Assembly: GCA_965224465.1 (NCBI GenBank)
Contig: OZ245049.1
Span: 720,001-752,000 of the forward strand
DNA: 32,000 bases
Source of the DNA: Flavobacteriaceae bacterium
GTDB lineage: Bacteria; Bacteroidota; Bacteroidia; Flavobacteriales; Flavobacteriaceae
Reading direction: 5' to 3'
The position numbers and the translations under genes were made by a program. The notes below the pieces were generated by a model. It saw nothing but the letters and a program-made list of their open reading frames with translations, did no database searches and was not told where the DNA came from. Positions within the stretch are counted from its first letter, which is position 1, and every line of letters starts with the position of its first letter. Below are positions 1 through 26,429 of this stretch, piece after piece.

Positions 1-2516
1 GAGGTACTCGATTTAATATCTTCAAGGGCTTTGTCTAAGGCATTTGTGATGTTATCTTTTAGATTTTGATACTCATCTTGATTAATTACCTCATACTCAA
101 ATCCTGTGCTGTACTTGTTTCCGCCTATTATTTTGATGTAACCGTAACTTTGTAAATCATATAAATACCTGCTTAATGTTTTGGGGTTAATTCGCATTTT
201 AGCACGTAATTCTTTAGCATAAAAACTTTGCCCATTTCCCTTTTTTAAGTGTGCTTTCAGCACTTCCAAAAAATCTCTACACGCTTTTGTCAACTCATCA
301 CTTTTGGCAAGTAATACCGTTTTTAGTAGCTTATTAGCTTGTTCTATATCTTCCAATGTCGTTTCTATGTATTTTTCTCCAGTAGTTTCATTTATTTTTA
401 TTTGCCTCTGCCGCTGGCAGTAAAATGTTACCGTTTCTATAAATGCTAAATAATGGGTGTTTGTTCTTAATGGCTTAAAAACTGTTTCGGGGATATTTAA
501 TAGTGTAGCGTAGGGATTGACAACTTTTACTTTCTCTAATAACCATTGTACATCCTTTAAAAATTCCCTGGCATTATTTTCTTCTTGCTTGTTAATCTTT
601 CCTGCCGATATGTTTTGCTGATAGCTCATAATTCCCTCTTTTTGTTGTTTACTGTTGTCTAAATAGATTAATAATGAACGGTTTGCATTGTCTTCATAAA
701 TCTTTTCTTTGGTAGTTGTTCCTGCTAAACAAATTGGTCCTTCTACGGTTAGGGTTACTGTTTTTAGGTTTCCTTTTGCATCTTTTATAGGTATGGTTTT
801 ACTTATTTTTCGTTTACTCATTAGTTCTCTTATAGCGTACAGTATCTTATCATCTTGTGCTCCATCCAAATCTTCAATTAATATCAATTTGTTTTTTAGT
901 TCTGTTCTGTCAAAGTAGTAAAGTGCATTTTCTGATAGTGCGGTGATTTCTAATTTATGTTCTTCAGGGATTAAGTCTGCTATTTTTTCTTGTAGGTAAG
1001 TTTTTCCTGTGCCGCTTGCTCCAAGACTTATAATATGTAGCGGTTGTTCTCGTAATCTACTCGTAAAAACCAAATACATTAACAGCCGATTATCGACCTC
1101 TCCAACCATTCCCGTTTTACCGATTAAATCATTTGTCTTCCGGAGTAGATTTTCGCCTTTTAAAAAGGTAATTGCTTTTTGTTTTCTTAGCTCTGTTAAT
1201 TCTCTTTGTTTCTTTTTTTGTGGTTTTTGAGCATCAACTTGTCTTAATCTGTAATCTTCTAATCCGTTTATGAGTTCTGCTATTACGTATTGTATTTCTC
1301 GTGTTCCTAATTCTAATCTTTCTGCTACTTTTCTTGTAAATTTCTCTGTTGAATCATCATTGTATAAATCTAAATTACTTTGTCTGATATTATATATTGG
1401 ACTTGGATTATCTGTTCTTGTAATGCGTAAAGTAACTTTTAGCTTGTCTAAACTGAACAAGTTTATCCCACCTAAAACGGCTATTAAAATGTTGTTGTTT
1501 TGGTAAGTGATGTAATCTTGGTTTTCTGTGTTCAGCTCGTTACTTACTGGCTCTGCCTGCTCTGTTACAAATTCAGTTTCTGAACCAAATAGGTTTTCTC
1601 TTTCACTTATTAAATGTTCTAAAATTGTAGGTTCGTGGCTCTGTACTAAACTATTTATATCTTCTCCTTTCGGACAATTAATTTTACTTATTGATAGATT
1701 ATTGAATAGTTGGTTTAGTGTTTTAGAATGTTCTTGCACTGCTTTTTCTCCCGCTTCATCTCCATCAAAGAAAAGTACAACTTCTTTTAAATTTTCTAAT
1801 TTTAATAATGCTTGCTTGTGTTCTTCAGTAAAGCCATTTGTTCCATATAAAGCAAGTGTTTCAAAGTTGGTGTATTTCTGAAGTGTGGCACTATCGATTA
1901 TACTTTCTGTTAAAATGATTACTTGCGTTTCTTTGTTTGGGTATTTTGGATAAAGTCCTTTTCTGTTAGCTGTATAGTAGTGCGTTCCTGTTTTGGCTAT
2001 ATTTCTACCGTAGAAACTTACTATCTCGTTTTGCTCATTTTTCAGAGGGTAAATGATGCAGTTTTTGAGTTGTTTAAAGTGAGTTCCATTATTATATCCT
2101 TGCTCTAATTTCACATCATAGATTCCTCTTTCTTCTAAATACGTTATTGCTTTTTTACTTCTGTGTAGGCTTTGTTTAAATTTGGGGTATAGTTCTTCAA
2201 AGTCTATAGTTTCAGCTTCTTCAAGTTTAGTATTCATAATTTTTAATTCATCATTCGTAATTCCAATAAGGCTTTTCGCCTTATTGATAGCTTTATGTTT
2301 GGTGCAGTTCTCTATTTCTTGTATAAACTGTATTGCATCTCCTGTTTTATCACAACCAAAACAAGTATAGGTATTCGTTTTGGGGTAGATTCTTAAACTC
2401 GGTTTGTTGTCTTTATGGAATGGGCATTTTGCGTGGTTGTTTTTGTTGATTGAGATATTGTACTGACTTAGTACTGTTTCTATGCTTAATTGCTCTTTAA
2501 TTTGCTTGATTTCCAT
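1..2516 (-). CDS. DNA primase (CHC2 zinc finger + TOPRIM) fused to a P-loop NTPase; 3' end cut by the window edge (about 13 nt missing)
   Basis: Colinear with 7555..10070, with a single SNP (1685 vs 9239). The ATG at 2516 gives MEIKQIKEQL. It is absent from the ORF track only because it runs off the window edge. Confidence 0.85.
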   Translation of the reverse strand, partial: MEIKQIKEQLSIETVLSQYNISINKNNHAKCPFHKDNKPSLRIYPKTNTYTCFGCDKTGDAIQFIQEIENCTKHKAINKAKSLIGITNDELKIMNTKLEEAETIDFEELYPKFKQSLHRSKKAITYLEERGIYDVKLEQGYNNGTHFKQLKNCIIYPLKNEQNEIVSFYGRNIAKTGTHYYTANRKGLYPKYPNKETQVIILTESIIDSATLQKYTNFETLALYGTNGFTEEHKQALLKLENLKEVVLFFDGDEAGEKAVQEHSKTLNQLFNNLSISKINCPKGEDINSLVQSHEPTILEHLISERENLFGSETEFVTEQAEPVSNELNTENQDYITYQNNNILIAVLGGINLFSLDKLKVTLRITRTDNPSPIYNIRQSNLDLYNDDSTEKFTRKVAERLELGTREIQYVIAELINGLEDYRLRQVDAQKPQKKKQRELTELRKQKAITFLKGENLLRKTNDLIGKTGMVGEVDNRLLMYLVFTSRLREQPLHIISLGASGTGKTYLQEKIADLIPEEHKLEITALSENALYYFDRTELKNKLILIEDLDGAQDDKILYAIRELMSKRKISKTIPIKDAKGNLKTVTLTVEGPICLAGTTTKEKIYEDNANRSLLIYLDNSKQQKEGIMSYQQNISAGKINKQEENNAREFLKDVQWLLEKVKVVNPYATLLNIPETVFKPLRTNTHYLAFIETVTFYCQRQRQIKINETTGEKYIETTLEDIEQANKLLKTVLLAKSDELTKACRDFLEVLKAHLKKGNGQSFYAKELRAKMRINPKTLSRYLYDLQSYGYIKIIGGNKYSTGFEYEVINQDEYQNLKDNITNALDKALEDIKSST

Positions 2517-2673
2517 CTTTTTTGAAATTGTTAAAAAAACTTTAATGATAACTATTGATTGCAAATGTATATAATAGTTTTCATTTAACAAGAAAACTAT
2601 TATTTTTTTTGGATACTTTTATTAACTAAATTTGCAGAAACAAGTAAACAGTAGTTTACTAATAGATAATATA
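2517..2673. promoter_or_regulatory. Divergent primase/XRE control region with two -7 boxes and a 12-bp perfect inverted repeat
   Basis: TACATTTG on the minus strand (2562..2569) lies 46 nt before the primase ATG. TAAATTTG on the plus strand (2627..2634) lies about 40 nt before the XRE ATG. The inverted repeat ATAATAGTTTTC/GAAAACTATTAT sits at 2571..2582 and 2592..2603. Confidence 0.45.
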
Positions 2674-3009
2674 ATGAATATTGGAAGTAAAATAATAGAA
2701 CTTAGGAAAGCAAAAAACTGGTCTCAAGCAGAACTTGCTGAAAATATAAGCGTGTCTCGTGTGATTATTGGAAAGTATGAACGCAATGACGCATCCCCAT
2801 CAATTGACATTGCAAAAAAGATGGCTGACGCTTTTGGGGTTAGTTTAGATTTTTTAGTAGGTGAGGGTAAAAATGCACACTACAATAAAAAGACATTAAA
2901 AATTATTGAAGAAATTGAAGCACTTGAACCAACTACAAAAGAAAAATTATACTTCTTAGTAAATGCTGTTATTCGAGATTCTAAAATACAAAAAGCTTAT
3001 GCAGGATGA
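2674..3009 (+). CDS. XRE/Cro-C1 family HTH transcriptional regulator
   Basis: HTH_3-like sequence: MNIGSKIIELRKAKNWSQAELAENISVSRVIIGKYERNDASPSIDIAKKMADAFGVSLDFLVG. Start set at the ATG at 2674; the ORF-track start at 2632 is a TTG extension. Confidence 0.85.
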   Translation: MNIGSKIIELRKAKNWSQAELAENISVSRVIIGKYERNDASPSIDIAKKMADAFGVSLDFLVGEGKNAHYNKKTLKIIEEIEALEPTTKEKLYFLVNAVIRDSKIQKAYAG

Positions 3010-3467
3010 GAAAGTTTTAAAACCTCTCTTTTCATATCTTCATACAAAGATAAAGCCTCTTTAAAAATTTCTTTAAGAGTTTCGTAATTATCAAATGAGG
3101 GCTTTTTTACTAAGCCATTTGATTTAATTCCCTGACTGTATTCTATTGATTCACAAATTAGAGAAGCAGGTCCACCTATGATTTGTCCCAATTCCTTATT
3201 TTTACAAGCCAAGATAATTTCAACAACACCATACTTAATTGATAGATGTATGTTGAATTCCCAAATATTATTTGAATCTTTAATTTGATAGAAACTCCCT
3301 TTTGATACAAATATTACTTTACTCCCTAACTCTTTAAAAATATCTAAAATTTGTTTTTTATCTACCTTTTCAAGTCTTCCCTCATTTATTCTTGTTTTCT
3401 TACTTAGATCCTTATAACGTCCATAAAAATTAACGTTCTCAAATATATTAATCCCAAACTCTTCCAT
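2997..3467 (-). CDS. Putative immunity protein for the 223-aa toxin module (variant a)
   Basis: Lies immediately downstream of the toxin module on the same strand, with a TAATG stop/start overlap at 3467. It is small and cytoplasmic-looking, and is the most divergent gene between otherwise identical repeat units. Confidence 0.6.
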   Translation of the reverse strand: MEEFGINIFENVNFYGRYKDLSKKTRINEGRLEKVDKKQILDIFKELGSKVIFVSKGSFYQIKDSNNIWEFNIHLSIKYGVVEIILACKNKELGQIIGGPASLICESIEYSQGIKSNGLVKKPSFDNYETLKEIFKEALSLYEDMKREVLKLSHPA

Positions 3468-4138
3468 TATTCTACTTTAAATCGTAATGTAATTCCTTTG
3501 TTGTTAGCTAAATTAATGTAGTCTTGAATATTACTTAAACTTTGATTAGTAGCAGGAATCTCTAAATACATTTGACCTTGTAAAATTTGACCATCAAGTA
3601 ATGGACTATACTTAGGCGAATTAATTGCTGTCCCTGGACTGTATTTAACTAACATTTCATCAAGATAACTCTCAAAAGTCGAAAGTTGTATATCCCCCAA
3701 ATTAGTTGCTTTTCTTGAAATAATTTCACCTGGATTACCATTAGCAGGTGGTTTATAAGAATCTAATCGTTTTCCATTACCCAAATGAACTTCATTGTAT
3801 GGATACCAATCATTATCAACTGCTTTTTTATTGAATGTGTTACCTCTTGCGAGCGGTGAATCAAATAACCAATAATCTCTTACCTCTTTCCATTCTAATC
3901 TTGGTCTTGGTGTTTTACCTGCATTTGTTTTTCGAGTAACGTACTTTAAATAATCTACTTCAAGTATGTTGTCAATGAATTTACCTGAGCCATTTAACAA
4001 TTCACTCCCTGCATTAGCCAAATCTTCAACACTAGCACTACTTTTTTCAATTGAAAAAAAAGTATCGTTTGCACTTAAATTAAAGCTTGTAAAAAAGCTT
4101 AGTGCAACTATTAAGAATATTTTAAAATGACTATTCAC
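3467..4138 (-). CDS. Displaced polymorphic-toxin C-terminal module (unassigned family, variant a) fused to a signal-peptide-like leader
   Basis: GTG start. The leader MNSHFKIFLIVALSFFTSFNLSA|ND is followed by FFSIEKSSASVEDLAN and then a ~175-aa domain. It shares the LAN junction 9-mer with the large toxin gene. A possible PD-(D/E)xK-like signature (RLDS...GEIISRK) is only a guess. Confidence 0.6.
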   Translation of the reverse strand: MNSHFKIFLIVALSFFTSFNLSANDTFFSIEKSSASVEDLANAGSELLNGSGKFIDNILEVDYLKYVTRKTNAGKTPRPRLEWKEVRDYWLFDSPLARGNTFNKKAVDNDWYPYNEVHLGNGKRLDSYKPPANGNPGEIISRKATNLGDIQLSTFESYLDEMLVKYSPGTAINSPKYSPLLDGQILQGQMYLEIPATNQSLSNIQDYINLANNKGITLRFKVE

Positions 4139-4675
4139 GTTCTCAAATATACAATTTTGTTTTTTTCAACTGACAAAAAACACAAAATGATTTTCTACGT
4201 TTTTTCTTCAATTGAAAAAGAGGCGGCTGTAGCGTGGGTTTTCAATTGAAGAAAAAATGATAGCTTTTTACGGCGATTGAGTAAAACAATTAAGATTCCT
4301 AGTGCGCTGGCAGTAGTGGTGGCAAAAGCGGTGGAATGTGGCTATTTTGCATAATACCAGTTATAACTACCTGTAGTTTTTCACGCAAGAGTATTATAAC
4401 TTGTATTATGTAACTTAGCTTGGGGTGGTTTTTTTGGCGGAGTTTTTGCCTTTTAGCCGTGGCACAGCTCGTTGGATTTTCTTTTTTTCAATTGAAAATA
4501 AAAACTTAAAAAAGAAAATACAATGTGCTGTTTTTTTTAGCGTGGATGCAAAAAATATGACCTAAAAATCACTAGGCAGTGGCGAGCGGAACAAAAGGAA
4601 ATACAAAGGGTTTTTGCTTTTTCTGCAAAAATTTGGATTTGATTTTGTGGGGATTCGTGTGGTGGGATTTAATCG
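4139..4675. other. Conserved non-coding region of the unit (candidate att/ori/regulatory region)
   Basis: No credible ORF. Higher GC than the flanks. About a dozen GTGG on the plus strand and no CCAC that I could find. Contains four TTCAATTGAA palindromes and a 17-bp-arm hairpin. The right half is homologous to 19950..20300. Confidence 0.5.
4350..4410. repeat. Inverted repeat with 17-bp arms (CATAATACCAGTTATAA / TTATAACTTGTATTATG), 27-nt spacer
   Basis: 16 of 17 positions are complementary. Arms lie at 4350..4366 and 4394..4410. Confidence 0.7.
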
Positions 4676-5698
4676 TTAATCTTCTAAAAACCGATCTAAA
4701 CTTTCAATAATATCTTCTGGAGATGGTAACAAACTCTTTAATTCTTCAGGCAGTTTTTCACTTAGGGAATAATCTGCTATTCCCATTGGTTTAGTCGCAG
4801 TATTCAATGCATATTCAACTACAGTTCTGTTTTTAGATTTACAAATTATTATTCCAATAGATGGATTTTCTCCTTCAATCTTCACTTTATCATCTAAAAC
4901 AGAAAGGTAAAACTGCATTTTACCTGCATATTCTGGTTTAAACTCTGTTGTCTTTAATTCAATAGCAATCAAACTTTTTAATCTTCTGTGATACAATAGT
5001 AAATCAATGAAAAATTCTGAACCGTCTAATTCTAAACGATACTGATTACCAATAAAAGAATAATCTCCTCCCATTTCCATTAAAAAACGTCTGATGTTCT
5101 TAACTAAACCAAGTTCTAAATCTCGTTCTTTATAATCTTCTGCCATTTCTAAAAAATCAAAACTATAACTGTCTTTAACCCCTAATTTGGCTTGATGCTT
5201 ATATTTTTCTTCTAACGACTTATCAAAGTTGGTTTGGTTCAATAAAAATCGTTCATAAGATTTACCTTCTACTTGATGAATCAATACATTTTTTGTCCAA
5301 CCATATTTCTTAGCCATTTTAATATAAAACTCACGTTCTAAATCATTTTTACACTTCTCTAAAATTACAAGGTTATGACTCCATCCAATTTCTCGCACCA
5401 ATGGTGCGAGTTTTTCGTTTTCATAATATTCTTGATAAAAACCTTTCATTCTCCAAAGATTACTACTTGAATACCCTCTTGTTCCTGGGAACTCTTTTTG
5501 TAAATCTTTCGCTAAATTTTCTACTACCGATTTACCCCAACCATATTGTTTTTGTTTTTCAATAATAGATTTTCCTAACTCCCAATAAAGATTAATCAAT
5601 TCAGTATTAACTGCTTTTAATGCTTTGTATTGAGATTGATAAATTTTCTCTTTTATCTCTTCTAAAAAATTGATGTAGGATTGGTCTGCTAAATTCAT
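4676..5698 (-). CDS. DUF1016 / YhcG-like PD-(D/E)xK nuclease-domain protein
   Basis: N-terminal region typical of the family (YKALKAVNTELINLYWELGKSIIEKQKQYGWGKSVVENLAKDLQKEFPGTRGYSSSNLWRMKGFY). C-terminal nuclease-like motif FIDLLLYHRRLKSLIAIELK. Start set at the ATG at 5698; the ORF-track start at 5707 is a TTG. Confidence 0.8.
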   Translation of the reverse strand: MNLADQSYINFLEEIKEKIYQSQYKALKAVNTELINLYWELGKSIIEKQKQYGWGKSVVENLAKDLQKEFPGTRGYSSSNLWRMKGFYQEYYENEKLAPLVREIGWSHNLVILEKCKNDLEREFYIKMAKKYGWTKNVLIHQVEGKSYERFLLNQTNFDKSLEEKYKHQAKLGVKDSYSFDFLEMAEDYKERDLELGLVKNIRRFLMEMGGDYSFIGNQYRLELDGSEFFIDLLLYHRRLKSLIAIELKTTEFKPEYAGKMQFYLSVLDDKVKIEGENPSIGIIICKSKNRTVVEYALNTATKPMGIADYSLSEKLPEELKSLLPSPEDIIESLDRFLED

Positions 5699-5729
5699 AA
5701 TTTTCAAAGTTAATTGTTTGGGTTGGATT

Positions 5730-6611
5730 TTACTGTAACGGATGAAACATTTCTATCTGCTTACTCAAATTCTTCATATCCTTATTTCGATACTTTTCTA
5801 TGTTTCCTACATTCTTATAACCGCTTAAATATTGGGTTTTTCTTAGTCCATATAAATCTATCCAAATACCTATTCTTGATTGTTTAAGTTGGGTTAATCT
5901 TTTAATATTTAGTGTTGGATTTTGTTCTCTAATTGTTTTTACTAATGCTTTTAATTGTTCGTGAACTCTTTGTTCTTTATTGACATTTGGATGAAACAAC
6001 TTTTCGCTTGATTCTAAACTTACTTTTCCATTTCTTCCTATTCCTCTAAAACTTGTAATATACTCGTGAAAAGGGATTATCTGATTTGCTTCTAATTTTA
6101 CTATTCTACTGTTCTTTCTTCTTACTCCTCCTGGGACTTTTAGTATTCCTTTTTTTAGATCTAAATCTTCTAATTCTAAATTCATTATATCTTGCTTATC
6201 CAATGCTTGAAAAATCATTAATCCCAATAGTAGTTTATTGCTGTATTTAAAATAGCCGTGTTTAGTTTTATCTTGGTAATTACTGTAAATTTCTTGTAGT
6301 TCTTCTTCTGTTAATAGTATGATTTGTTCTTGTGCTACTCCTCTTAATCTTACGTTTAAAGCAATATTATCTATCTTTAAAAAATGGTAATAATGTTCTA
6401 TTGCTCTAAGGGTTGTATTGATACTTGTTTTTGATTTCTCTTGATTTTGTAAATGACCAATATAGTTTAATAACTGATTGTATTTTATCGTTTTTACGGT
6501 TAGTTTATTGAGTTTTAACCAAGTTGTAAAAAGTCCTATTCTCATTATGAAATCTTTGATACATTTTTCGCTGTAAAACCTATCTATCAACCATTTTCTA
6601 AACTCTTCCAT
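5730..6611 (-). CDS. Tyrosine-recombinase-like protein with a degenerate catalytic set (partner subunit)
   Basis: N-terminal core-binding-like region paralogous to the neighbouring recombinase. By-eye alignment places ALDKQD where GLRSKE (Arg I) is expected, TQLKQS where HSLRHS is expected, and SGY where LGH is expected. The terminal Tyr is kept (IEKY). Confidence 0.6.
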   Translation of the reverse strand: MEEFRKWLIDRFYSEKCIKDFIMRIGLFTTWLKLNKLTVKTIKYNQLLNYIGHLQNQEKSKTSINTTLRAIEHYYHFLKIDNIALNVRLRGVAQEQIILLTEEELQEIYSNYQDKTKHGYFKYSNKLLLGLMIFQALDKQDIMNLELEDLDLKKGILKVPGGVRRKNSRIVKLEANQIIPFHEYITSFRGIGRNGKVSLESSEKLFHPNVNKEQRVHEQLKALVKTIREQNPTLNIKRLTQLKQSRIGIWIDLYGLRKTQYLSGYKNVGNIEKYRNKDMKNLSKQIEMFHPLQ

Positions 6612-7435
6612 TCTTCAAGTATATGGGTGTAAATCTGTGTACTATCTAATCTTTTATGACCTAAAAAATTACCAATATATTCTAACTCCATTCCTTGCTG
6701 TAAAAGGTGTGTCGCTATACTGTGGCGTAAACTGTGCAGTGTTGCATTTTTATTAATGTTTGCCTTATTCATTAACTTCTTTAATCTACTGTTTAAATAT
6801 TGACCTGTTACTTGTGGATTTGATTTCCCAACTAATAAATAGTTACTTTCTGTATTGATTATCTCCCTTGCAAACTCAACATATTCTTTTAAATCTGCTA
6901 TTACTTTTTTACTCATTGGAACGTATCTACTTTGATAATTCTTACTTGGTTTGACATAAATTAATCCTTTGTTAAAGTCTAATTCTTTTGGTTCTAAATT
7001 AATACCTTCTTTACTTCTTAATCCACAACCATAGTAGATACTTAGCATTGCTTTATCAAATAAACCACTCGGACTGTGCCCATCAATTGAAGAAAAAAGT
7101 TGTTGTATTTCTAATTGATTAAAGATTACTTTTTCTGTTTTTATTTCTCTTTCTACTATAATTTTATTGACTGCTAATTTCTGTTTTTTGGTCTTTTCTA
7201 AAAAGGCACTGTATCTATTTATTACGTTAATATGACCTTGTATATATTGTCTACTGGCTTTGGTTTGATGCAAGCCTTTTATAAACTCTTCTATCTCTTG
7301 TTGATTAGCTTTTCTTTGATTTAAGTACTTGAAAAAATTAGCTAATAACCTTACATATCCTTTGATGGTGCTTTCTGCATAGCCTAATCTAACTAACCAA
7401 TTCTCAAAGTTTTCTAATTCTTCTTTTAAATTCAT
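6587..7435 (-). CDS. Tyrosine recombinase / integrase (XerC/D-like, canonical catalytic residues)
   Basis: GCGLRSKE (Arg I) and HSLRHSIATHLLQQGMELEYIGNFLGHKRLDSTQIY (HxxR, H, Y). Overlaps the downstream partner gene by 25 nt. Confidence 0.85.
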   Translation of the reverse strand: MNLKEELENFENWLVRLGYAESTIKGYVRLLANFFKYLNQRKANQQEIEEFIKGLHQTKASRQYIQGHINVINRYSAFLEKTKKQKLAVNKIIVEREIKTEKVIFNQLEIQQLFSSIDGHSPSGLFDKAMLSIYYGCGLRSKEGINLEPKELDFNKGLIYVKPSKNYQSRYVPMSKKVIADLKEYVEFAREIINTESNYLLVGKSNPQVTGQYLNSRLKKLMNKANINKNATLHSLRHSIATHLLQQGMELEYIGNFLGHKRLDSTQIYTHILEEWKSLENG

Positions 7436-7541: not shown

Positions 7542-10070
7542 CTAATGAGGTACTGAGGTACTCGATTTAATATCTTCAAGGGCTTTGTCTAAGGCATTTG
7601 TGATGTTATCTTTTAGATTTTGATACTCATCTTGATTAATTACCTCATACTCAAATCCTGTGCTGTACTTGTTTCCGCCTATTATTTTGATGTAACCGTA
7701 ACTTTGTAAATCATATAAATACCTGCTTAATGTTTTGGGGTTAATTCGCATTTTAGCACGTAATTCTTTAGCATAAAAACTTTGCCCATTTCCCTTTTTT
7801 AAGTGTGCTTTCAGCACTTCCAAAAAATCTCTACACGCTTTTGTCAACTCATCACTTTTGGCAAGTAATACCGTTTTTAGTAGCTTATTAGCTTGTTCTA
7901 TATCTTCCAATGTCGTTTCTATGTATTTTTCTCCAGTAGTTTCATTTATTTTTATTTGCCTCTGCCGCTGGCAGTAAAATGTTACCGTTTCTATAAATGC
8001 TAAATAATGGGTGTTTGTTCTTAATGGCTTAAAAACTGTTTCGGGGATATTTAATAGTGTAGCGTAGGGATTGACAACTTTTACTTTCTCTAATAACCAT
8101 TGTACATCCTTTAAAAATTCCCTGGCATTATTTTCTTCTTGCTTGTTAATCTTTCCTGCCGATATGTTTTGCTGATAGCTCATAATTCCCTCTTTTTGTT
8201 GTTTACTGTTGTCTAAATAGATTAATAATGAACGGTTTGCATTGTCTTCATAAATCTTTTCTTTGGTAGTTGTTCCTGCTAAACAAATTGGTCCTTCTAC
8301 GGTTAGGGTTACTGTTTTTAGGTTTCCTTTTGCATCTTTTATAGGTATGGTTTTACTTATTTTTCGTTTACTCATTAGTTCTCTTATAGCGTACAGTATC
8401 TTATCATCTTGTGCTCCATCCAAATCTTCAATTAATATCAATTTGTTTTTTAGTTCTGTTCTGTCAAAGTAGTAAAGTGCATTTTCTGATAGTGCGGTGA
8501 TTTCTAATTTATGTTCTTCAGGGATTAAGTCTGCTATTTTTTCTTGTAGGTAAGTTTTTCCTGTGCCGCTTGCTCCAAGACTTATAATATGTAGCGGTTG
8601 TTCTCGTAATCTACTCGTAAAAACCAAATACATTAACAGCCGATTATCGACCTCTCCAACCATTCCCGTTTTACCGATTAAATCATTTGTCTTCCGGAGT
8701 AGATTTTCGCCTTTTAAAAAGGTAATTGCTTTTTGTTTTCTTAGCTCTGTTAATTCTCTTTGTTTCTTTTTTTGTGGTTTTTGAGCATCAACTTGTCTTA
8801 ATCTGTAATCTTCTAATCCGTTTATGAGTTCTGCTATTACGTATTGTATTTCTCGTGTTCCTAATTCTAATCTTTCTGCTACTTTTCTTGTAAATTTCTC
8901 TGTTGAATCATCATTGTATAAATCTAAATTACTTTGTCTGATATTATATATTGGACTTGGATTATCTGTTCTTGTAATGCGTAAAGTAACTTTTAGCTTG
9001 TCTAAACTGAACAAGTTTATCCCACCTAAAACGGCTATTAAAATGTTGTTGTTTTGGTAAGTGATGTAATCTTGGTTTTCTGTGTTCAGCTCGTTACTTA
9101 CTGGCTCTGCCTGCTCTGTTACAAATTCAGTTTCTGAACCAAATAGGTTTTCTCTTTCACTTATTAAATGTTCTAAAATTGTAGGTTCGTGGCTCTGTAC
9201 TAAACTATTTATATCTTCTCCTTTCGGACAATTAATTTCACTTATTGATAGATTATTGAATAGTTGGTTTAGTGTTTTAGAATGTTCTTGCACTGCTTTT
9301 TCTCCCGCTTCATCTCCATCAAAGAAAAGTACAACTTCTTTTAAATTTTCTAATTTTAATAATGCTTGCTTGTGTTCTTCAGTAAAGCCATTTGTTCCAT
9401 ATAAAGCAAGTGTTTCAAAGTTGGTGTATTTCTGAAGTGTGGCACTATCGATTATACTTTCTGTTAAAATGATTACTTGCGTTTCTTTGTTTGGGTATTT
9501 TGGATAAAGTCCTTTTCTGTTAGCTGTATAGTAGTGCGTTCCTGTTTTGGCTATATTTCTACCGTAGAAACTTACTATCTCGTTTTGCTCATTTTTCAGA
9601 GGGTAAATGATGCAGTTTTTGAGTTGTTTAAAGTGAGTTCCATTATTATATCCTTGCTCTAATTTCACATCATAGATTCCTCTTTCTTCTAAATACGTTA
9701 TTGCTTTTTTACTTCTGTGTAGGCTTTGTTTAAATTTGGGGTATAGTTCTTCAAAGTCTATAGTTTCAGCTTCTTCAAGTTTAGTATTCATAATTTTTAA
9801 TTCATCATTCGTAATTCCAATAAGGCTTTTCGCCTTATTGATAGCTTTATGTTTGGTGCAGTTCTCTATTTCTTGTATAAACTGTATTGCATCTCCTGTT
9901 TTATCACAACCAAAACAAGTATAGGTATTCGTTTTGGGGTAGATTCTTAAACTCGGTTTGTTGTCTTTATGGAATGGGCATTTTGCGTGGTTGTTTTTGT
10001 TGATTGAGATATTGTACTGACTTAGTACTGTTTCTATGCTTAATTGCTCTTTAATTTGCTTGATTTCCAT
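7542..10070 (-). CDS. DNA primase (CHC2 zinc finger + TOPRIM) fused to a P-loop NTPase with a C-terminal wHTH-like tail
   Basis: CPFHKDNKPSLRIYPKTNTYTCFGC; ILTESIIDS...LFFDGDEAG; Walker A GASGTGKT; Walker B LILIEDLDG. Start set at the ATG at 10070 to match the paralogues; the ORF-track start at 10145 is an extension. Confidence 0.85.
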   Translation of the reverse strand: MEIKQIKEQLSIETVLSQYNISINKNNHAKCPFHKDNKPSLRIYPKTNTYTCFGCDKTGDAIQFIQEIENCTKHKAINKAKSLIGITNDELKIMNTKLEEAETIDFEELYPKFKQSLHRSKKAITYLEERGIYDVKLEQGYNNGTHFKQLKNCIIYPLKNEQNEIVSFYGRNIAKTGTHYYTANRKGLYPKYPNKETQVIILTESIIDSATLQKYTNFETLALYGTNGFTEEHKQALLKLENLKEVVLFFDGDEAGEKAVQEHSKTLNQLFNNLSISEINCPKGEDINSLVQSHEPTILEHLISERENLFGSETEFVTEQAEPVSNELNTENQDYITYQNNNILIAVLGGINLFSLDKLKVTLRITRTDNPSPIYNIRQSNLDLYNDDSTEKFTRKVAERLELGTREIQYVIAELINGLEDYRLRQVDAQKPQKKKQRELTELRKQKAITFLKGENLLRKTNDLIGKTGMVGEVDNRLLMYLVFTSRLREQPLHIISLGASGTGKTYLQEKIADLIPEEHKLEITALSENALYYFDRTELKNKLILIEDLDGAQDDKILYAIRELMSKRKISKTIPIKDAKGNLKTVTLTVEGPICLAGTTTKEKIYEDNANRSLLIYLDNSKQQKEGIMSYQQNISAGKINKQEENNAREFLKDVQWLLEKVKVVNPYATLLNIPETVFKPLRTNTHYLAFIETVTFYCQRQRQIKINETTGEKYIETTLEDIEQANKLLKTVLLAKSDELTKACRDFLEVLKAHLKKGNGQSFYAKELRAKMRINPKTLSRYLYDLQSYGYIKIIGGNKYSTGFEYEVINQDEYQNLKDNITNALDKALEDIKSSTSVPH

Positions 10071-10227
10071 CTTTTTTGAAATTGTTAAAAAAACTTTAAT
10101 GATAACTATTGATTGCAAATGTATATAATAGTTTTCATTTAACAAGAAAACTATTATTTTTTTTGGATACTTTTATTAACTAAATTTGCAGAAACAAGTA
10201 AACAGTAGTTTACTAATAGATAATATA
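10071..10227. promoter_or_regulatory. Divergent primase/XRE control region (copy of 2517..2673)
   Basis: -7 boxes at 10116..10123 (minus strand) and 10181..10188 (plus strand). The 12-bp perfect inverted repeat lies at 10125..10136 and 10146..10157. Confidence 0.45.
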
Positions 10228-10563
10228 ATGAATATTGGAAGTAAAATAATAGAACTTAGGAAAGCAAAAAACTGGTCTCAAGCAGAACTTGCTGAAAATA
10301 TAAGCGTGTCTCGTGTGATTATTGGAAAGTATGAACGCAATGACGCATCCCCATCAATTGACATTGCAAAAAAGATGGCTGACGCTTTTGGGGTTAGTTT
10401 AGATTTTTTAGTAGGTGAGGGTAAAAACGCACACTACAATAAAAAGACATTAAAAATTATTGAAGAAATTGAAGCCCTTGAACCAACTACTAAAGAAAAA
10501 CTATATTTCTTAGTAAATGCGGTTATTAGAGATTCTAAAACACAAAAGGCTTATGCAGGATGA
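10228..10563 (+). CDS. XRE/Cro-C1 family HTH transcriptional regulator
   Basis: Differs from 2674..3009 by one residue, plus a few 3'-terminal synonymous changes where the divergence island begins. Confidence 0.85.
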   Translation: MNIGSKIIELRKAKNWSQAELAENISVSRVIIGKYERNDASPSIDIAKKMADAFGVSLDFLVGEGKNAHYNKKTLKIIEEIEALEPTTKEKLYFLVNAVIRDSKTQKAYAG

Positions 10564-11021
10564 GAAAGTTTTAAAGCCTCTCTTTTCATATCTTCATATA
10601 AAGATAAGGCTTCTTTAAAAATTTCTTGAAGAGTCTCGTAATTATCAAATGAGGGATCTTTGATTAGTTCTTCTGACTTTATGTTTTTAGAATATTCAAT
10701 ATCTTCACATATAACACAAGAAGCCCCTCCTATAAATTTTTCTGATATATTGTTTTTACATCCTAAAATAATTTCTACTAAACCATATTTCAGACTAAAA
10801 TGAATATTAAATGTCCAATTATTTAACGAATCTACGATTTTGTAAAAATTACCTTTAGAAACATACTTTACCTTATAGTCTAACTTTTCTAAGATAGCTA
10901 AAACTTGTTTTTTATCTGTTTTTTCAAGCCTTCTTTCATTATTTCGTGTTTTATCACTCAAAGACTTGTATCGCTCATAAAAATTAATACTTTCAAATAT
11001 GTTAATCCCAAACTCTTCCAT
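10551..11021 (-). CDS. Putative immunity protein for the 223-aa toxin module (variant b)
   Basis: Same position and length as 2997..3467, but about 46 of 156 residues differ (by-eye count). Confidence 0.6.
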   Translation of the reverse strand: MEEFGINIFESINFYERYKSLSDKTRNNERRLEKTDKKQVLAILEKLDYKVKYVSKGNFYKIVDSLNNWTFNIHFSLKYGLVEIILGCKNNISEKFIGGASCVICEDIEYSKNIKSEELIKDPSFDNYETLQEIFKEALSLYEDMKREALKLSHPA

Positions 11022-11692
11022 TATTCTACTTTAAATCGTAATGTAATCCCTTTGTTATTAGCTAAATTAATATAGTCTTGAATATTGCTTAAACTTTGAT
11101 TTGTAGCTGGGATTTCTAAATACATTTGCCCTTGTAATATCTGACCATCAAGGGCTGGACTATATTTAGGCGAATTAATAGAAGTACCAGGACTATACTT
11201 AACTAACATTTCATCAAGGTAACTCTCAAAAGTCGAAAGTTGTATATCTCCTAAATTCGTTGCTTTTCTTGAAATAATCTCCCCTGGATTTCCATTTTTA
11301 GGTGGCTTATAAGAATCTAATCGCTTTCCATTACCCAAATGAACTTCATTATATGGATACCATTTATTATCAACAGCTGTCTTGTTAAAAGCATTACCTC
11401 TTGCGAGTGGTGAATCAAATAACCAATAATCTCTTACTTCTTTCCATTCTAATCTTGGTCTTGATGTTTTTCCTGCATTAGTTTTTCGAGTAACATACTT
11501 TAAATAATCTGCTTCAAGTATGTCGTCAATGAACTTTCCTGATGCATTTAATAAATCACTCCCTGCATTAGCCAAATCTTCAACACTAGCACTACTTTTT
11601 TCAATTGAAAAAAAAGTATCGTTTGCACTTAAATTAAAGCTTGTAAAAAAGCTTAGTGCAACTATTAAGAATATTTTAAAATGACTATTCAC
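11021..11692 (-). CDS. Displaced polymorphic-toxin C-terminal module (variant b) with a signal-peptide-like leader
   Basis: About 11 of 223 residues differ from 3467..4138. The leader and the LAN junction are identical. Confidence 0.6.
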   Translation of the reverse strand: MNSHFKIFLIVALSFFTSFNLSANDTFFSIEKSSASVEDLANAGSDLLNASGKFIDDILEADYLKYVTRKTNAGKTSRPRLEWKEVRDYWLFDSPLARGNAFNKTAVDNKWYPYNEVHLGNGKRLDSYKPPKNGNPGEIISRKATNLGDIQLSTFESYLDEMLVKYSPGTSINSPKYSPALDGQILQGQMYLEIPATNQSLSNIQDYINLANNKGITLRFKVE

Positions 11693-12229
11693 GTTCTCAA
11701 ATATACAATTTTGTTTTTTTCAACTGACAAAAAACACAAAATGATTTTCTACGTTTTTTCTTCAATTGAAAAAGAGGCGGCTGTAGCGTGGGTTTTCAAT
11801 TGAAGAAAAAATGATAGCTTTTTACGGCGATTGAGTAAAACAATTAAGATTCCTAGTGCGCTGGCAGTAGTGGTGGCAAAAGCGGTGGAATGTGGCTATT
11901 TTGCATAATACCAGTTATAACTACCTGTAGTTTTTCACGCAAGAGTATTATAACTTGTATTATGTAACTTAGCTTGGGGTGGTTTTTTTGGCGGAGTTTT
12001 TGCCTTTTAGCCGTGGCACAGCTCGTTGGATTTTCTTTTTTTCAATTGAAAATAAAAACTTAAAAAAGAAAATACAATGTGCTGTTTTTTTTAGCGTGGA
12101 TGCAAAAAATATGACCTAAAAATCACTAGGCAGTGGCGAGCGGAACAAAAGGAAATACAAAGGGTTTTTGCTTTTTCTGCAAAAATTTGGATTTGATTTT
12201 GTGGGGATTCGTGTGGTGGGATTTAATCG
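11693..12229. other. Conserved non-coding region of the unit (copy of 4139..4675)
   Basis: Identical to 4139..4675 at an offset of 7554. Confidence 0.5.
11904..11964. repeat. Copy of the 17-bp-arm inverted repeat
   Basis: Identical to 4350..4410. Confidence 0.7.
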
Positions 12230-13252
12230 TTAATCTTCTAAAAACCGATCTAAACTTTCAATAATATCTTCTGGAGATGGTAACAAACTCTTTAATTCTT
12301 CAGGCAGTTTTTCACTTAGGGAATAATCTGCTATTCCCATTGGTTTAGTCGCAGTATTCAATGCATATTCAACTACAGTTCTGTTTTTAGATTTACAAAT
12401 TATTATTCCAATAGATGGATTTTCTCCTTCAATCTTCACTTTATCATCTAAAACAGAAAGGTAAAACTGCATTTTACCTGCATATTCTGGTTTAAACTCT
12501 GTTGTCTTTAATTCAATAGCAATCAAACTTTTTAATCTTCTGTGATACAATAGTAAATCAATGAAAAATTCTGAACCGTCTAATTCTAAACGATACTGAT
12601 TACCAATAAAAGAATAATCTCCTCCCATTTCCATTAAAAAACGTCTGATGTTCTTAACTAAACCAAGTTCTAAATCTCGTTCTTTATAATCTTCTGCCAT
12701 TTCTAAAAAATCAAAACTATAACTGTCTTTAACCCCTAATTTGGCTTGATGCTTATATTTTTCTTCTAACGACTTATCAAAGTTGGTTTGGTTCAATAAA
12801 AATCGTTCATAAGATTTACCTTCTACTTGATGAATCAATACATTTTTTGTCCAACCATATTTCTTAGCCATTTTAATATAAAACTCACGTTCTAAATCAT
12901 TTTTACACTTCTCTAAAATTACAAGGTTATGACTCCATCCAATTTCTCGCACCAATGGTGCGAGTTTTTCGTTTTCATAATATTCTTGATAAAAACCTTT
13001 CATTCTCCAAAGATTACTACTTGAATACCCTCTTGTTCCTGGGAACTCTTTTTGTAAATCTTTCGCTAAATTTTCTACTACCGATTTACCCCAACCATAT
13101 TGTTTTTGTTTTTCAATAATAGATTTTCCTAACTCCCAATAAAGATTAATCAATTCAGTATTAACTGCTTTTAATGCTTTGTATTGAGATTGATAAATTT
13201 TCTCTTTTATCTCTTCTAAAAAATTGATGTAGGATTGGTCTGCTAAATTCAT
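12230..13252 (-). CDS. DUF1016 / YhcG-like PD-(D/E)xK nuclease-domain protein
   Basis: Protein identical to 4676..5698. Confidence 0.8.
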   Translation of the reverse strand: MNLADQSYINFLEEIKEKIYQSQYKALKAVNTELINLYWELGKSIIEKQKQYGWGKSVVENLAKDLQKEFPGTRGYSSSNLWRMKGFYQEYYENEKLAPLVREIGWSHNLVILEKCKNDLEREFYIKMAKKYGWTKNVLIHQVEGKSYERFLLNQTNFDKSLEEKYKHQAKLGVKDSYSFDFLEMAEDYKERDLELGLVKNIRRFLMEMGGDYSFIGNQYRLELDGSEFFIDLLLYHRRLKSLIAIELKTTEFKPEYAGKMQFYLSVLDDKVKIEGENPSIGIIICKSKNRTVVEYALNTATKPMGIADYSLSEKLPEELKSLLPSPEDIIESLDRFLED

Positions 13253-13283
13253 AATTTTCAAAGTTAATTGTTTGGGTTGGATT

Positions 13284-14165
13284 TTACTGTAACGGATGAA
13301 ACATTTCTATCTGCTTACTCAAATTCTTCATATCCTTATTTCGATACTTTTCTATGTTTCCTACATTCTTATAACCGCTTAAATATTGGGTTTTTCTTAG
13401 TCCATATAAATCTATCCAAATACCTATTCTTGATTGTTTAAGTTGGGTTAATCTTTTGATATTTATTTCTTGATTTTGTTCCTTTATAGTTCTTACCAAT
13501 ACTTTTAACTGGTCGTGAACTCTCTGTTCTTTGTTGCAATTTGGACTAAACAAACGTTCACTTGATTCATTACTTTTTATTCCGTTTCTTCCAATTCCTC
13601 TAAAGTTTGTAATGTAATCGTGAAAAGGTATAATCTGATTGGCTTCTAGTTTTACTACTCTACTGTTTTTTCTTCTTACTCCTCCAGGTACTTTTATTAT
13701 TCCTTTTTTTAGATCTAAATCTGTTACTTCCAAATTCATTAAATCTTGTTTATCCAATGCCTGAAAAAGCATTAATCCCAACATTAATTTGTTACTGTAT
13801 TTAAAATATCCGTGCTTAGTTTTGTTCTCATAATTAGTATAAATCGAGTTTAACTCGTCTTCTGTTAGTAGTAGTATTTGTTCTTGAGTTATTCCTTTAA
13901 TCCTTACGTTTAATGCTATGTTGTCTATTTTTAAAAAATGGTAATAATGTTCTATGGTTCTTAAAGTTGTATTGATGCTGGTCTTTGATTTTTCTTGTTC
14001 TTGAAGATGCCCTATGTAGTTTAATAATTGATTGTACTTTACTGTTTTGAATTTCAGCTTATTGCCTTTTAACCAAGTTGTAAATAGTCCAATTCTCATT
14101 ATAAAATCTTTGATACACTTCTCGCTGTAATACCTTTCTATCAACCATTTTCTAAACTCTGTCAT
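13284..14165 (-). CDS. Tyrosine-recombinase-like protein with a degenerate catalytic set (chimeric allele)
   Basis: Start set at MTEFRKWLIE (ATG at 14165) by homology with 5730..6611. The 3' end up to 13440 matches unit B; from 13458 onward it matches unit D. Confidence 0.6.
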   Translation of the reverse strand: MTEFRKWLIERYYSEKCIKDFIMRIGLFTTWLKGNKLKFKTVKYNQLLNYIGHLQEQEKSKTSINTTLRTIEHYYHFLKIDNIALNVRIKGITQEQILLLTEDELNSIYTNYENKTKHGYFKYSNKLMLGLMLFQALDKQDLMNLEVTDLDLKKGIIKVPGGVRRKNSRVVKLEANQIIPFHDYITNFRGIGRNGIKSNESSERLFSPNCNKEQRVHDQLKVLVRTIKEQNQEINIKRLTQLKQSRIGIWIDLYGLRKTQYLSGYKNVGNIEKYRNKDMKNLSKQIEMFHPLQ

Positions 14166-18839: not shown

Positions 18840-19700
18840 GTTTAAATCTAAAAGATTTATTCTACCTGATGTTGCATTTATCTTATTTTCCAAAGAATTA
18901 GATAATCCTTCTATATATTGTTTCGTCAACTGAGGGTTTAAGTTTTTGTTTTTTACTCCATTGACTACTTGTTCACCCCACCAATTCAAATGTTCTCCTA
19001 TTTGATTTGTATAACTTGGATGTGGTCCGTGCTTCCCTAACCTTGTAGCTTTAGAATATTTATCTAATCCCATACCATTAGTAACCCCATTAAAGTCAAA
19101 ACCTCCTTCAACTGCTTTTTTAACAGTTGCGTTTTCTTTCAATAATTGAACAGGAAATAAATGATGAGCCTCTTGTCCTGACTGTATTCCTGATATTGTA
19201 CCTCTTAAATCACCTCTATGTTTAATAGTGTTTTTTACAATTTTAGAGCCATAAGATGACACATCTTCAACAAATCCAATACTACCATCTGCATTTTTCA
19301 CAAAACCACCTCCGATAATTGTTTCACCTGAACTGGTTTTAACTGAAGTCATTCCTGTAATAGGTGTAGTATTATTTCCTGTTGCTTTAAAAAAGTCATC
19401 TGATATTTCTAAAATCTCATCCGAACCATTTTTAACCACTCTTGCTATCTCATCACCATTTTGTGCTGTGATTTTTACAACATCATCTATTTTGTTGTAA
19501 TTTAAACCTAAATGAGCCCAATCATCAAACTTACTTGCAAGCTTTGGAAATATAGAAGCAATATCACCCACCGTATTAGCCAATTCTTCAAGCCTTTCAC
19601 TACTTTTTTCAATTGAAAAAAAAGTGTCGTTTGCACTTAAATTGAGTGTCGAAAAAACACTAAGTACAACAATTAGGAATATTTTAAATAAGCTGTTCAC
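18828..19700 (-). CDS. Displaced AHH-family (HNH/EndoVII) nuclease toxin module fused to a signal-peptide-like leader
   Basis: 18828..19583 is identical to 26418..27173. AHH motif GQEAHHLFP at 19161..19169. Leader MNSLFKIFLIVVLSVFSTLNLSA|ND with FFSIEKSS. GTG start. Confidence 0.7.
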   Translation of the reverse strand: MNSLFKIFLIVVLSVFSTLNLSANDTFFSIEKSSERLEELANTVGDIASIFPKLASKFDDWAHLGLNYNKIDDVVKITAQNGDEIARVVKNGSDEILEISDDFFKATGNNTTPITGMTSVKTSSGETIIGGGFVKNADGSIGFVEDVSSYGSKIVKNTIKHRGDLRGTISGIQSGQEAHHLFPVQLLKENATVKKAVEGGFDFNGVTNGMGLDKYSKATRLGKHGPHPSYTNQIGEHLNWWGEQVVNGVKNKNLNPQLTKQYIEGLSNSLENKINATSGRINLLDLNLPH

Positions 19701-25786: not shown

Positions 25787-26429
25787 ATTTTACACTTTAA
25801 AACCTGCAGTAGACACAAAAGAGACTGGAAATATTTTCCCTGCTGTAGAGAGTTATGAAGATTATGATTTTAACAGCTCTAATTCTGTACATAACTTAGA
25901 TTCGGATAGCTTCCCTGATTTTACGCCTGATATTCGTCTTAAGCTTGCTAAAGGCGCAAAACTTTGTGACGTTATGGGACAAGGCACCATTAGTGCTTGT
26001 GGATTATTGATAAGTCAAAATGTAAAAGATGTTTTTGAAAAATTTAACTTAATTCCACATAGGTATTTTGATGCAACTATTGAAGATAAAGGTGTAATTC
26101 ATAAATACTATTGGGTACATTTTGTTTGGAAAGACGCGATAAATCATCTTAATTTTGAAAACAGTAAATTTCAAATTAATGAATTTGGCGATAATCTTGG
26201 CGAGATAAAAATAAGAAATTATAAAGAACTACTTGAAAAGCAAACAGAATATGGATTTATGAAGACTATTTACAATTATGAAACAGAAATGTTTACTGTA
26301 AATTCTAATTTATTTATTCACCCATTAAACAAAACGATTTATGTATCAGAGAAAATTTATAATTCTTTTTTACATAAATCGCTTAAAGGAATTGATTTGT
26401 CACTAGCCCCAAATTTATTAATGAGGTAA
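25776..26429 (+). CDS. Putative immunity protein for the AHH nuclease tip (possibly DUF1629/Imm11-like)
   Basis: Identical to 18186..18839. Converges on, and overlaps by 12 nt, the 3' end of the full-length toxin gene. Confidence 0.5.
   Translation: MQNKFYTLKPAVDTKETGNIFPAVESYEDYDFNSSNSVHNLDSDSFPDFTPDIRLKLAKGAKLCDVMGQGTISACGLLISQNVKDVFEKFNLIPHRYFDATIEDKGVIHKYYWVHFVWKDAINHLNFENSKFQINEFGDNLGEIKIRNYKELLEKQTEYGFMKTIYNYETEMFTVNSNLFIHPLNKTIYVSEKIYNSFLHKSLKGIDLSLAPNLLMR

Follow-up and report, generated by a model that had tools for sequence, protein, structure and literature searches.

In a 32,000-nucleotide (nt) stretch of the genome of a Flavobacteriaceae bacterium (GenBank assembly GCA_965224465.1, contig OZ245049.1, positions 720,001 to 752,000; hereafter the window), the gene for a large polymorphic toxin is followed by four related units in tandem, each of which begins with a toxin tip and its immunity gene. 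Two neighboring units, E_a and E_b (units A and B), are nearly identical on both sides of a sharply bounded island that holds their toxin tip and immunity gene. The two versions of this island, a and b, are shown here to be pre-existing allelic toxin-immunity haplotypes from a population pool, which predate the array. That old alleles were joined by recombination, under purifying selection and with one edge of the island at the tip junction, is in our judgment highly likely. The accompanying mechanism is likely to be site-specific, element-borne exchange of toxin tips combined with gene conversion between array members. On the anatomy of the locus, the case for a site-specific mechanism encoded by the elements themselves appears evenly balanced, and the combined account of old alleles and element-borne tip exchange is the one that we regard as probably correct.

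Extent of the divergence island

Units A and B were compared by self-alignment of the window at an offset of 7554 (1..5903 vs 7555..13457). Over the 5903 nt, 189 nucleotide differences and no indels were found. The island at 2874-4001 contains 188 of them, the remaining one is located at 1685/9239, and 4002..5903 contains none. With a uniform spread, the probability of finding 188 of 189 differences in one 1128-nt block is ~1e-135, and the clustering is therefore not due to chance. The XRE gene (2632-3009, plus strand) differs at 9 nt and at 1 of 125 residues (residue 119). The immunity gene (2997-3467, minus strand) differs at 120 nt (74.5% identity) and 46 of 156 residues, and the toxin open reading frame (ORF; 3467-4138, minus strand) at 59 nt (91.2% identity) and 11 of 223 residues. 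The divergent patch reported in an initial annotation of this DNA is thereby confirmed as genuine: the near-identical flanks, the sharp island without an indel, and the residue counts for all three genes were reproduced exactly. Its description of A and B as otherwise identical 7.5-kb repeats holds up to 5903, but further on, in the recombinase genes, identity is only ~80%, and the repeats are mosaics. What it had taken for a toxin module of 223 residues is composite. Codons 1-39 form a signal-peptide-like leader and codons 40-46 the junction LANAGSE, and only ~47-223 belong to the toxin tip, so that a 40-codon leader and a junction precede a tip of ~180 residues.

The island is nested. In a likelihood scan, an inner block at 3102-3438 with 33.5% nucleotide difference was separated from a remaining shell with 9.5% (twice the log-likelihood difference, 90.5; 0 of 200 permutations as high). 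The lower edge at 2874 falls in codon 81 of the XRE gene, where no special sequence feature is present. At the upper edge, the first a/b mismatch at 4001 directly adjoins a 20-nt core that starts at 4002. The solitary difference at 1685/9239 is non-synonymous in primase codon 303 (Lys in A, Glu in B); the metagenome contig L082, described below, has the A state at this position.

Selection and age of the two haplotypes

Pairwise ratios of non-synonymous to synonymous divergence (dN/dS) between a and b were calculated by the Nei-Gojobori method. For the toxin tip, a synonymous divergence (dS) of 0.57 and a dN/dS of 0.06-0.07 were obtained, and 44 of the 59 substitutions in the toxin are synonymous. 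The whole immunity gene had a dS >1 and a dN/dS of 0.17. In its core, silent sites are saturated (proportion of differing synonymous sites (pS), 0.72) and dN/dS was 0.12; the values for the XRE tail were 0.36 (dS) and 0.03 (dN/dS). The comparison of b with its environmental relatives, termed b′, is unsaturated. Here dS was equal in the toxin and immunity genes (0.127 and 0.136), with a dN/dS of 0.02 for the toxin and 0.14 for the immunity gene. All three island genes (toxin, immunity, XRE) are thus shown to be under purifying selection, and the immunity protein is simply less constrained than the toxin, ~7-fold. The initial annotation had considered diversifying selection on the immunity protein and had named dN/dS beforehand as the check that could refute it. 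This check was run and came out well below 1 in all three genes, and for the immunity protein it did so overall, in the core, and for b vs b′, which speaks against such selection. With two alleles compared, positive selection may act at individual immunity sites.

The same data bear on the possibility that the island diversified in place after a recent 7.5-kb tandem duplication, with the immunity gene, and the toxin less so, driven by positive arms-race selection toward two specificities. Such a history would account for the imbalance between 46/156 and 11/223 differing residues and for the concentration of toxin changes in the helical N-subdomain (8 of 11; P=0.02), and rapid change at immunity interfaces has been reported for Bacteroidales orphan immunity genes (PMC12247911). 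It is contradicted by the flanks, whose 0-1 differences are incompatible with an island dS of 0.4 to >1, and by dN/dS values of 0.07-0.17. It also fails to explain why the b haplotype is ~98% identical in three unrelated assemblies and why silent sites of the immunity core are twice as diverged as those of the toxin. Diversification in place is largely refuted, and we consider it very improbable.

The age of the segments was assessed from silent differences at codons for identical amino acids. These amounted to 29 of 62 codons (47%) in the immunity core and 40 of 162 (25%) in the toxin tip (P=0.002), and to 10 of 73 in the immunity C terminus plus XRE tail (P=4.5e-5 vs the core). Because silent divergence cannot be raised by faster amino acid evolution, the immunity core has the older history and represents an older sequence stratum than the adjacent toxin and the rest of the island. 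The asymmetry between toxin and immunity divergence, which had been called unusual, was placed in the context of 40 toxin/immunity pairs of the family. Its direction is the family norm, since in 98.5% of 757 comparisons conservation was lower for the immunity protein than for the toxin, but its size is atypical. Toxins that are 94-96% identical are normally paired with immunities that are 93-100% identical; the only exceptions are a/b (toxin 93.8, immunity 70.5) and the Selenomonas pair L019/L020 (90.9 and 53.6). The older stratum in the immunity core explains the outlying size in a/b, and a faster protein clock is not needed. The Selenomonas pair presents a similar decoupling of toxin and immunity in another phylum. 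The toxin tree and the immunity tree disagree in how they place a, b, L065, and Pseudotamlana.

Occurrence of the haplotypes on other backbones

Contigs from three metagenome assemblies (L082, L083, and L084, of which L082 equals L083) each contain a leader::tip gene, an immunity gene, a 111-residue XRE protein, and a primase. In all three, the b haplotype is present at ~98% identity on a different backbone, with a different leader, the 111-residue XRE, and a primase diverged by 10-20%. L082 is 10-20% different from both window copies in the leader and from XRE onward, whereas between ~11400 and 10681 (B coordinates) it has 0-3 differences from E_b per 60 nt. At the 189 sites variable between A and B, it agrees with B at 165 and with A at 21, and it matches neither at 3. 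The immunity-b cluster includes two metagenome members, and no second copy of haplotype a was found in the database homologues and clusters searched. Toxin b and immunity b therefore travel together as a haplotype across backbones, and because b recurs on a different backbone at ~98% identity, a and b are pre-existing alleles that were joined by recombination. This agrees with the first of the two origins offered in the initial annotation, replacement of the cassette by recombination with recombining flanks. A dS of 0.57 in the toxin tip and a saturated immunity core next to flanks with 0-1 differences support it, as do the 165 of 189 B-state sites in L082 and a second conversion patch in the primase gene, described below.

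Two further contigs, L065 and L066, have the same gene order as the elements of the window. Both join an a/b-like cassette (75% nucleotide identity) to an XRE112 backbone of the type found in E_c and E_d, and the tip-immunity cassette is therefore exchangeable relative to the backbone. In Oceanihabitans sp. IOP_32 (L068), one full element is followed by a last leader::tip gene and then by host genes including ftsZ. This last tip is positioned as expected for the originally resident one. In L079, the tip of a big-toxin homologue begins at the core; immunity, XRE, primase, and rec1 and rec2 (the two recombinase genes) come next, and a leader fused to the same tip completes the series. Tandem elements are present in L072 and L081.

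The 20-nt core at the tip junction

The core pattern TTGGCTAATRCRGKGRGTGA occurs exactly four times in the window, always on the minus strand and in direct orientation, and not once on the plus strand (Table 1). Tyrosine-recombinase elements are bounded by direct repeats of a short core that also occurs at the target site, and this is the case here, with one of the four cores inside the target gene. Downstream of the core, the AHH tips of the big toxin and of the leader ORF at 18828-19700 are identical, and the sequences upstream of it are unrelated. Junctions were further compared in 13 metagenome contigs carrying the leader, together with L065, L066, and L068. Different leaders are joined to the same tip (L073 vs L079, L069 vs L075), and one leader is joined to four different tips (L070, L075, L079, L081). 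In related contigs, the switch from leader to tip is confined to ~AATTGGCTAA (~10 nt). Public data contain fusions of this leader to >15 unrelated tips, among them ART, TNT, Fic, and SHH domains (Pfam), and the join is always made at the motif LA[NE][AG][GV]xD. The ratio of non-synonymous to synonymous differences per site (pN/pS) in the leader is 0.5, which is compatible with conservation as protein or as DNA. The leader pattern gave 0 matches in IMG/VR.

Breaks at the core were seen in three contigs; the first letters of L066 and L067 are TTGG, and the last ones of L077 are TTGGCTAA. Both ends of L066 (7267 bp) lie in the core, and this contig corresponds to exactly one core-to-core unit. 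The breaks and the L066 unit are circumstantial support for excision or a circular form.

On the leader side of the core, a cluster of palindromes was found. Allowing one mismatch, TTTCAATTGAAA is present in 11 copies against 0.82 expected, all of them ≤~480 nt from one of the three leader cores, and none lies beside the core of the big toxin. From their placement, the palindromes may be recombinase arm-type sites, repressor operators, or origin iterons. Together with the leader cores they look like a complex element-side site facing a simple target site. One copy of TTTCAATTGAAA lies inside the leader ORF, where it encodes FSIEK. A tRNA-targeting island or phage satellite was rejected as a candidate, because tRNA and Rfam scans detected no tRNA, tmRNA, or other Rfam family in the window.

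Exchange between array members and alternative histories

The core-to-core lengths are 7590 nt for E_d, 8008 nt for E_c, and 7554 nt for E_b, and the "7.5-kb repeats" are core-to-core elements. E_a and E_b are neighboring, closely related integrative elements of which the island is the "head." A second divergence island distinguishes E_c from E_d. These two are identical over ~6.1 kb except for one single-nucleotide difference and a 451-nt patch in the primase gene. The patch has 75 differences including a 9-nt indel, and E_c is there identical to E_b and to unit A. In addition, the tail of E_b (4002-5903) is identical to that of E_c over 1902 nt. For the primase patch and the 1.9-kb tails, exchange of segments between array members by gene conversion is thus shown. 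Patches with sharp edges thus characterize the array as a whole and are not confined to toxin and immunity.

Such exchange opens another route to the same structure. E_a and E_b may have diverged long ago and integrated separately, and their bodies and tails may later have been homogenized by conversion while the toxin-immunity segment escaped, either because selection keeps two immunity specificities or because heteroduplexes do not extend across 33% divergence. That the island ends at the core would then reflect just the element boundary, and a site-specific step would not be needed. This scenario agrees with the favored one on the origin of a and b and differs only in which segment is "young." Sharp-ended conversion patches elsewhere in the array fit it. 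The identical tracts also belong to different pairs, with ≥2873 nt shared by the E_a/E_b bodies and 1902 nt by the E_b/E_c tails, and divergence is highest in the immunity core and falls off on either side, the profile expected near a target of balancing selection. It is less easily reconciled with the tail conversion tract, which ends exactly at the core though the next 560 nt are still ~90% identical. We rate late homogenization as unlikely, although it is the most serious competitor of tip exchange between old alleles.

The possibility of an assembly artefact was also considered, in which reads of related elements were collapsed or mis-joined, so that the units would be chimeras and the identity of their flanks artificial. 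Assembly is difficult for 7.5-kb repeats that contain 100% identical stretches, and more leader::tip genes exist in the same genome (P0099, P0108). Nevertheless, every ORF is intact and in frame across all junctions, and the contig is 5.24 Mb in length. The tandem architecture, including the succession of big toxin, element, and leader::tip, is moreover found in independent assemblies. An artefact of this kind is accordingly given hardly any weight.

The toxin tip and its immunity protein

The locus displays three of the features by which polymorphic toxins are recognized: a variable C-terminal tip after a conserved junction, an adjacent immunity gene, and orphan cassettes downstream. Three leader::tip plus immunity cassettes follow the big toxin gene. 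For the toxin tip, 111 database hits and 64 genomic loci were collected from Bacteroidota, Firmicutes, Actinobacteria, Cyanobacteria, Chloroflexi, and spirochaetes; none of the 64 loci comes from a relative closer than 74%. Searches of Pfam, NCBIfam, and PDB gave no sequence match for the tip (PDB profile search, nothing below E 0.78). An AlphaFold2 model (mean predicted local distance difference test (pLDDT) score, 83.7) consists of a helical N-subdomain and an alpha/beta core, in which three strands carry the conserved residues D126 and E138...K143. All top Foldseek matches of the model are PD-(D/E)xK proteins (Card1, CdiA-CT 4zqu/4g6u, EndoMS), at weak similarity with template modeling (TM) scores of 0.33-0.51. 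D126 and K143 are invariant, and E138 is found in ≥90% of the sequences, with a spacing of ExxxxK in place of the canonical ExK. From the model, the tip is a probable PD-(D/E)xK nuclease.

In 38 of 45 loci, which come from several phyla, a homologue of the immunity gene directly follows the toxin tip, within 400 nt downstream. The immunity protein was modeled with confidence (AlphaFold2, pLDDT 90.6), and a fold search of the model against the PDB returned no solved structural relative (best E 0.23). The candidate immunity gene of the AHH tip is an Imm11-like ORF on the opposite strand, with a weak Pfam match (E 0.0015). In these AHH-type elements (17858-18839, 25448-26429) the Imm11-like gene (230 residues) is on the other strand from the toxin and reaches into the end of the XRE gene, in the manner of a gene co-transcribed with the repressor, whereas the a/b immunity gene follows the toxin on the same strand.

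Composition of the elements and the large toxin gene

The element-related genes lie mainly on the minus strand. Read down from 32000, the large toxin gene is followed by E_d, E_c, E_b, and E_a (units D to A). Within a unit, the order is toxin tip, immunity gene, XRE/RstR-type repressor, primase (~860 residues), rec1, rec2, cargo, and a leader that runs into the next core. The XRE gene is convergent with the immunity gene and overlaps it. rec1 has the full catalytic set R..HxxR..H..Y. The cargo of related elements includes Phd/ParE (L066) and a HigB-like protein with a helix-turn-helix (HTH) gene (L068). Plus-strand ORFs of 60-117 residues antisense to the primase (709-2370, 8263-9924, and others) are artefacts of AT skew and not genes.

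The start of the 1827-residue toxin ORF probably lies further downstream (region 31600-31901), as the first ~95 residues are of low complexity and are followed by a typical signal peptide KLLTAFCLLLTCQLTQAQ. The G+C content is 0.37-0.42 in the 5′ two thirds of the gene (29000-32000) but 0.25-0.34 in its 3′ third, a range that all elements share. Such a compositional break within a single ORF is a hint that the distal part, too, is of foreign origin. A homologue search with the region preceding the tip returned only one truncated paralogue from the same genome and one match of 36%. Outside the window, the 5.24-Mb source contig contains further leader::tip ORFs with other tips and this kind of truncated pre-toxin paralogue (P0099, P0108, P0129), and more arrays or remnants therefore exist in this genome.

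Table 1. Coordinates of the elements, genes, and sites in the window
Feature	Position	Strand	Remarks
Core TTGGCTAATGCAGGGAGTGA	4002..4021	-	Junction E_b leader / E_a toxin tip; putative site-specific crossover site (overlap ~TTGGCTAA)
Core TTGGCTAATGCAGGGAGTGA	11556..11575	-	Junction E_c leader / E_b toxin tip
Core TTGGCTAATACGGTGGGTGA	19564..19583	-	Junction E_d leader / E_c AHH tip; C/D homology ends here
Core TTGGCTAATACGGTGGGTGA	27154..27173	-	Inside the 1827-residue toxin gene, attB-like side; no leader and no palindrome upstream
Palindrome cluster TTTCAATTGAAA	4045..4497 (4045, 4206, 4240, 4486; looser ~4170); repeated 11599-12051, 19607-20002		Leader side of core
Divergence island, A vs B	2874..4001 (B copy 10428-11555)	-	Toxin tip, immunity gene, and last 45 XRE codons; 188/189 A/B differences
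Inner hyper-divergent block	3102..3438 (B copy 10656-10992)	-	Immunity codons 11-122
Second divergence island, E_c vs E_d	17078..17528 (D copy 24659-25118)	-	N-terminal part of primase
Leader::tip ORF a, 223 residues	3467..4138 (B copy 11021-11692)	-	
Immunity gene a, 156 residues	2997..3467 (B copy 10551-11021)	-	Homologue directly downstream of tip in 38/45 loci
XRE/RstR-family repressor, 125 residues	2632..3009 (B copy 10186-10563)	+	Pfam HTH_3 1.5e-17; NCBIfam phage_RstR 91 bits, cut-off 80
Primase, CHC2 zinc finger + Toprim + C-terminal P-loop region	7542..10145; others ..2591, 15131-17692, 22712-25282	-	
rec1, XerC/D-like tyrosine recombinase	6587..7435; others 14176-15081, 21757-22662	-	Pfam Phage_integrase 9.5e-37
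rec2, divergent tyrosine-recombinase paralogue	5730..6611; others 13284-14201, 20865-21782	-	Pfam Phage_integrase near/below threshold
Cargo, YhcG/DUF1016 PD-(D/E)xK nuclease	4676..5707; identical copy 12230-13261	-	Pfam 6e-61 and 2e-45; E_b and E_c
Cargo, YefM/YoeB toxin-antitoxin pair	20302-20804		E_d
Leader::AHH-nuclease tip, 290 residues	18828..19700	-	Tip identical to big-toxin C terminus
Large polymorphic toxin, 1827-residue ORF	26418..31901	-	fn3, HExxH motif, C-terminal AHH nuclease tip after junction LLANTVGD

Proposed mechanism

In the mechanism that we propose, integration at the core inside the big toxin gene would place the tip of the incoming element on the large delivery protein. 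The previous tip would be moved onto the small leader encoded by the element, and its immunity gene would be kept in the array. The upper edge of the island at 4001/4002 lies at the junction where tips join leaders or the big toxin, and catalysis there would be performed by the recombinases of the element. A shared stretch of 8-20 nt does not suffice for ordinary homologous recombination, and each unit encodes two recombinases. For these reasons, site-specific exchange appears to be the most economical reading, and since identity stops exactly at the core, a site-specific step is favored on the upper side. The lower edge, inside the XRE gene, would be an ordinary end point of homologous recombination or gene conversion. 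The identity of the flanks is explained by array members that are recent copies of each other and continually convert one another.

Several observations weigh against site-specific exchange by the elements. No excision product, circular form, or empty site was observed, and the activity and site of the recombinases are deduced from anatomy. The box-I catalytic Arg of rec2 is replaced by Asp (GLR to ALD) in 4 of 4 homologues aligned, and rec2 is probably a non-catalytic or atypical partner of rec1. Contact-dependent inhibition (CDI) and Rhs systems show a sharp boundary at a conserved demarcation motif without a dedicated recombinase. The argument for site specificity rests on four to five junction pairs. 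In the window and in L079, the two cases in which the big-toxin junction can be seen, the tip of the big toxin recurs on the next leader, so that an extra step, tandem re-integration or duplication, is needed. Either the cassette was replaced in one young duplicate or the bodies of two old elements were homogenized, and both routes are recombination. E_a is seen only as far as the window edge, and misassembly of near-identical repeats is possible. Finally, the evidence for the tip as a nuclease is weak, with Foldseek E values of 6e-3 to 6e-2 and a motif that lacks the ExK spacing.

Relation to known systems

Displacement of C-terminal tips and arrays of orphan tips and immunities are described for the Rhs, CdiA, and MafB polymorphic toxins (Zhang et al. 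2012, PMC3482391), for Rhs also by Jackson et al. 2009, as cited in PMC13183296, and effector displacement is described for V. cholerae (PMC5361080). The locus resembles these systems in its large delivery protein, the variable C-terminal toxin after a short conserved demarcation motif, and the immunity gene adjoining the tip. Displaced tips and immunities likewise accumulate downstream, and old alleles are shuffled by recombination. In contrast to Rhs, CdiA, and MafB, each displaced cassette comes with its own primase, two tyrosine recombinases, repressor, and cargo (7.3-8.0-kb units), and a displaced tip is joined to a conserved signal-peptide-like leader instead of being left as a 5′-truncated fragment. 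The homology between partners is limited to the 8-20-nt core, whereas part of the conserved upstream gene is retained in CDI/Rhs orphans. The best matches of the tip model include CdiA-CT of Y. pseudotuberculosis (4zqu) and of E. coli TA271 (4g6u), and with these and the Tox-REase families (PMC3482391) the tip shares an immunity gene directly downstream. It is unlike these PD-(D/E)xK tips in the missing profile match, the ExxxxK spacing, and an immunity fold without a solved relative.

The arrays of recombinase-associated acquired interbacterial defense (rAID-1) in Bacteroidales consist of a single tyrosine recombinase and, behind it, a series of short orphan immunity genes in one orientation, with conserved motifs between the genes (PMC12247911), and XerC/D genes are found next to polyimmunity loci (PMC3482391). 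As in rAID, a tyrosine recombinase in Bacteroidota lies by arrays of toxin-related cassettes with conserved intergenic motifs, and divergent immunity copies are present in one genome. The rAID arrays, however, combine one recombinase with many orphan immunities and have neither a primase, nor leader-bearing toxin tips, nor a link to a large toxin ORF, whereas the locus in the window has one toxin/immunity pair per 7.5-kb unit and a site inside the toxin reading frame. Assignment to rAID-1 was rejected on account of the 7.5-kb units with primase and two recombinases and the single toxin/immunity pair per unit. An integron-like cassette array was considered and also rejected.

In shufflons (Rci/PilV), a tyrosine recombinase swaps alternative C-terminal segments of one gene by inversion between inverted sites. 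Here, too, C-terminal coding segments of one large gene would be exchanged at short conserved sites by a tyrosine recombinase. A shufflon was rejected, since all four cores are direct and on the same strand; the exchanged segment is a whole mobile element and not an inversion in a fixed locus. Tandem accretion of integrative elements at one attachment site is known from the CTXphi/RS1 arrays with their RstR repressors. It is also described for IMEX elements (PMC6744903). The present array shares with CTXphi/RS1 and IMEX the direct repeats of a short core, the head-to-tail related elements, the RstR-family repressor, the replication protein, and the recombination between neighbors. It departs from such arrays in that its attachment site would lie in frame inside a toxin coding gene, so that integration alters a protein, and in that the elements have their own recombinase pair in place of host XerCD. 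In full-text literature searches, limited to the library searched, no description of an element with its attachment site at a polymorphic toxin tip junction was found. The array is probably a variant of toxin-tip displacement that is driven by element-encoded site-specific recombination.

Significance

The main value of the finding is corrective, as the island reflects old alleles and recombination and not fast adaptive evolution. In addition, a widespread and so far unannotated toxin tip/immunity pair was defined, which is present in at least six phyla. As a tentative generalization, somewhat less probable than not, small self-replicating integrative elements of Flavobacteriia and other Bacteroidota may use an 8-10-nt in-frame site in polymorphic toxin genes as their attachment site. 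The tip would be exchanged, the former tip placed on a leader, and the old immunity gene kept; arrays would evolve by conversion, and specificities such as a and b would be held by balancing selection centered on the immunity core. New tips are believed to reach polymorphic toxins through homologous recombination with orphan cassettes. The locus suggests that cassettes have a dedicated vehicle, namely an element of 7.5 kb that encodes recombinases and a primase of its own and uses the tip junction as its attachment site. If this is true, the 20-nt core would provide a handle for finding such loci and for testing tip exchange, and deliberate tip swapping would be possible. The toxin repertoire and the immunity memory of these bacteria would then be set by infection with mobile elements.

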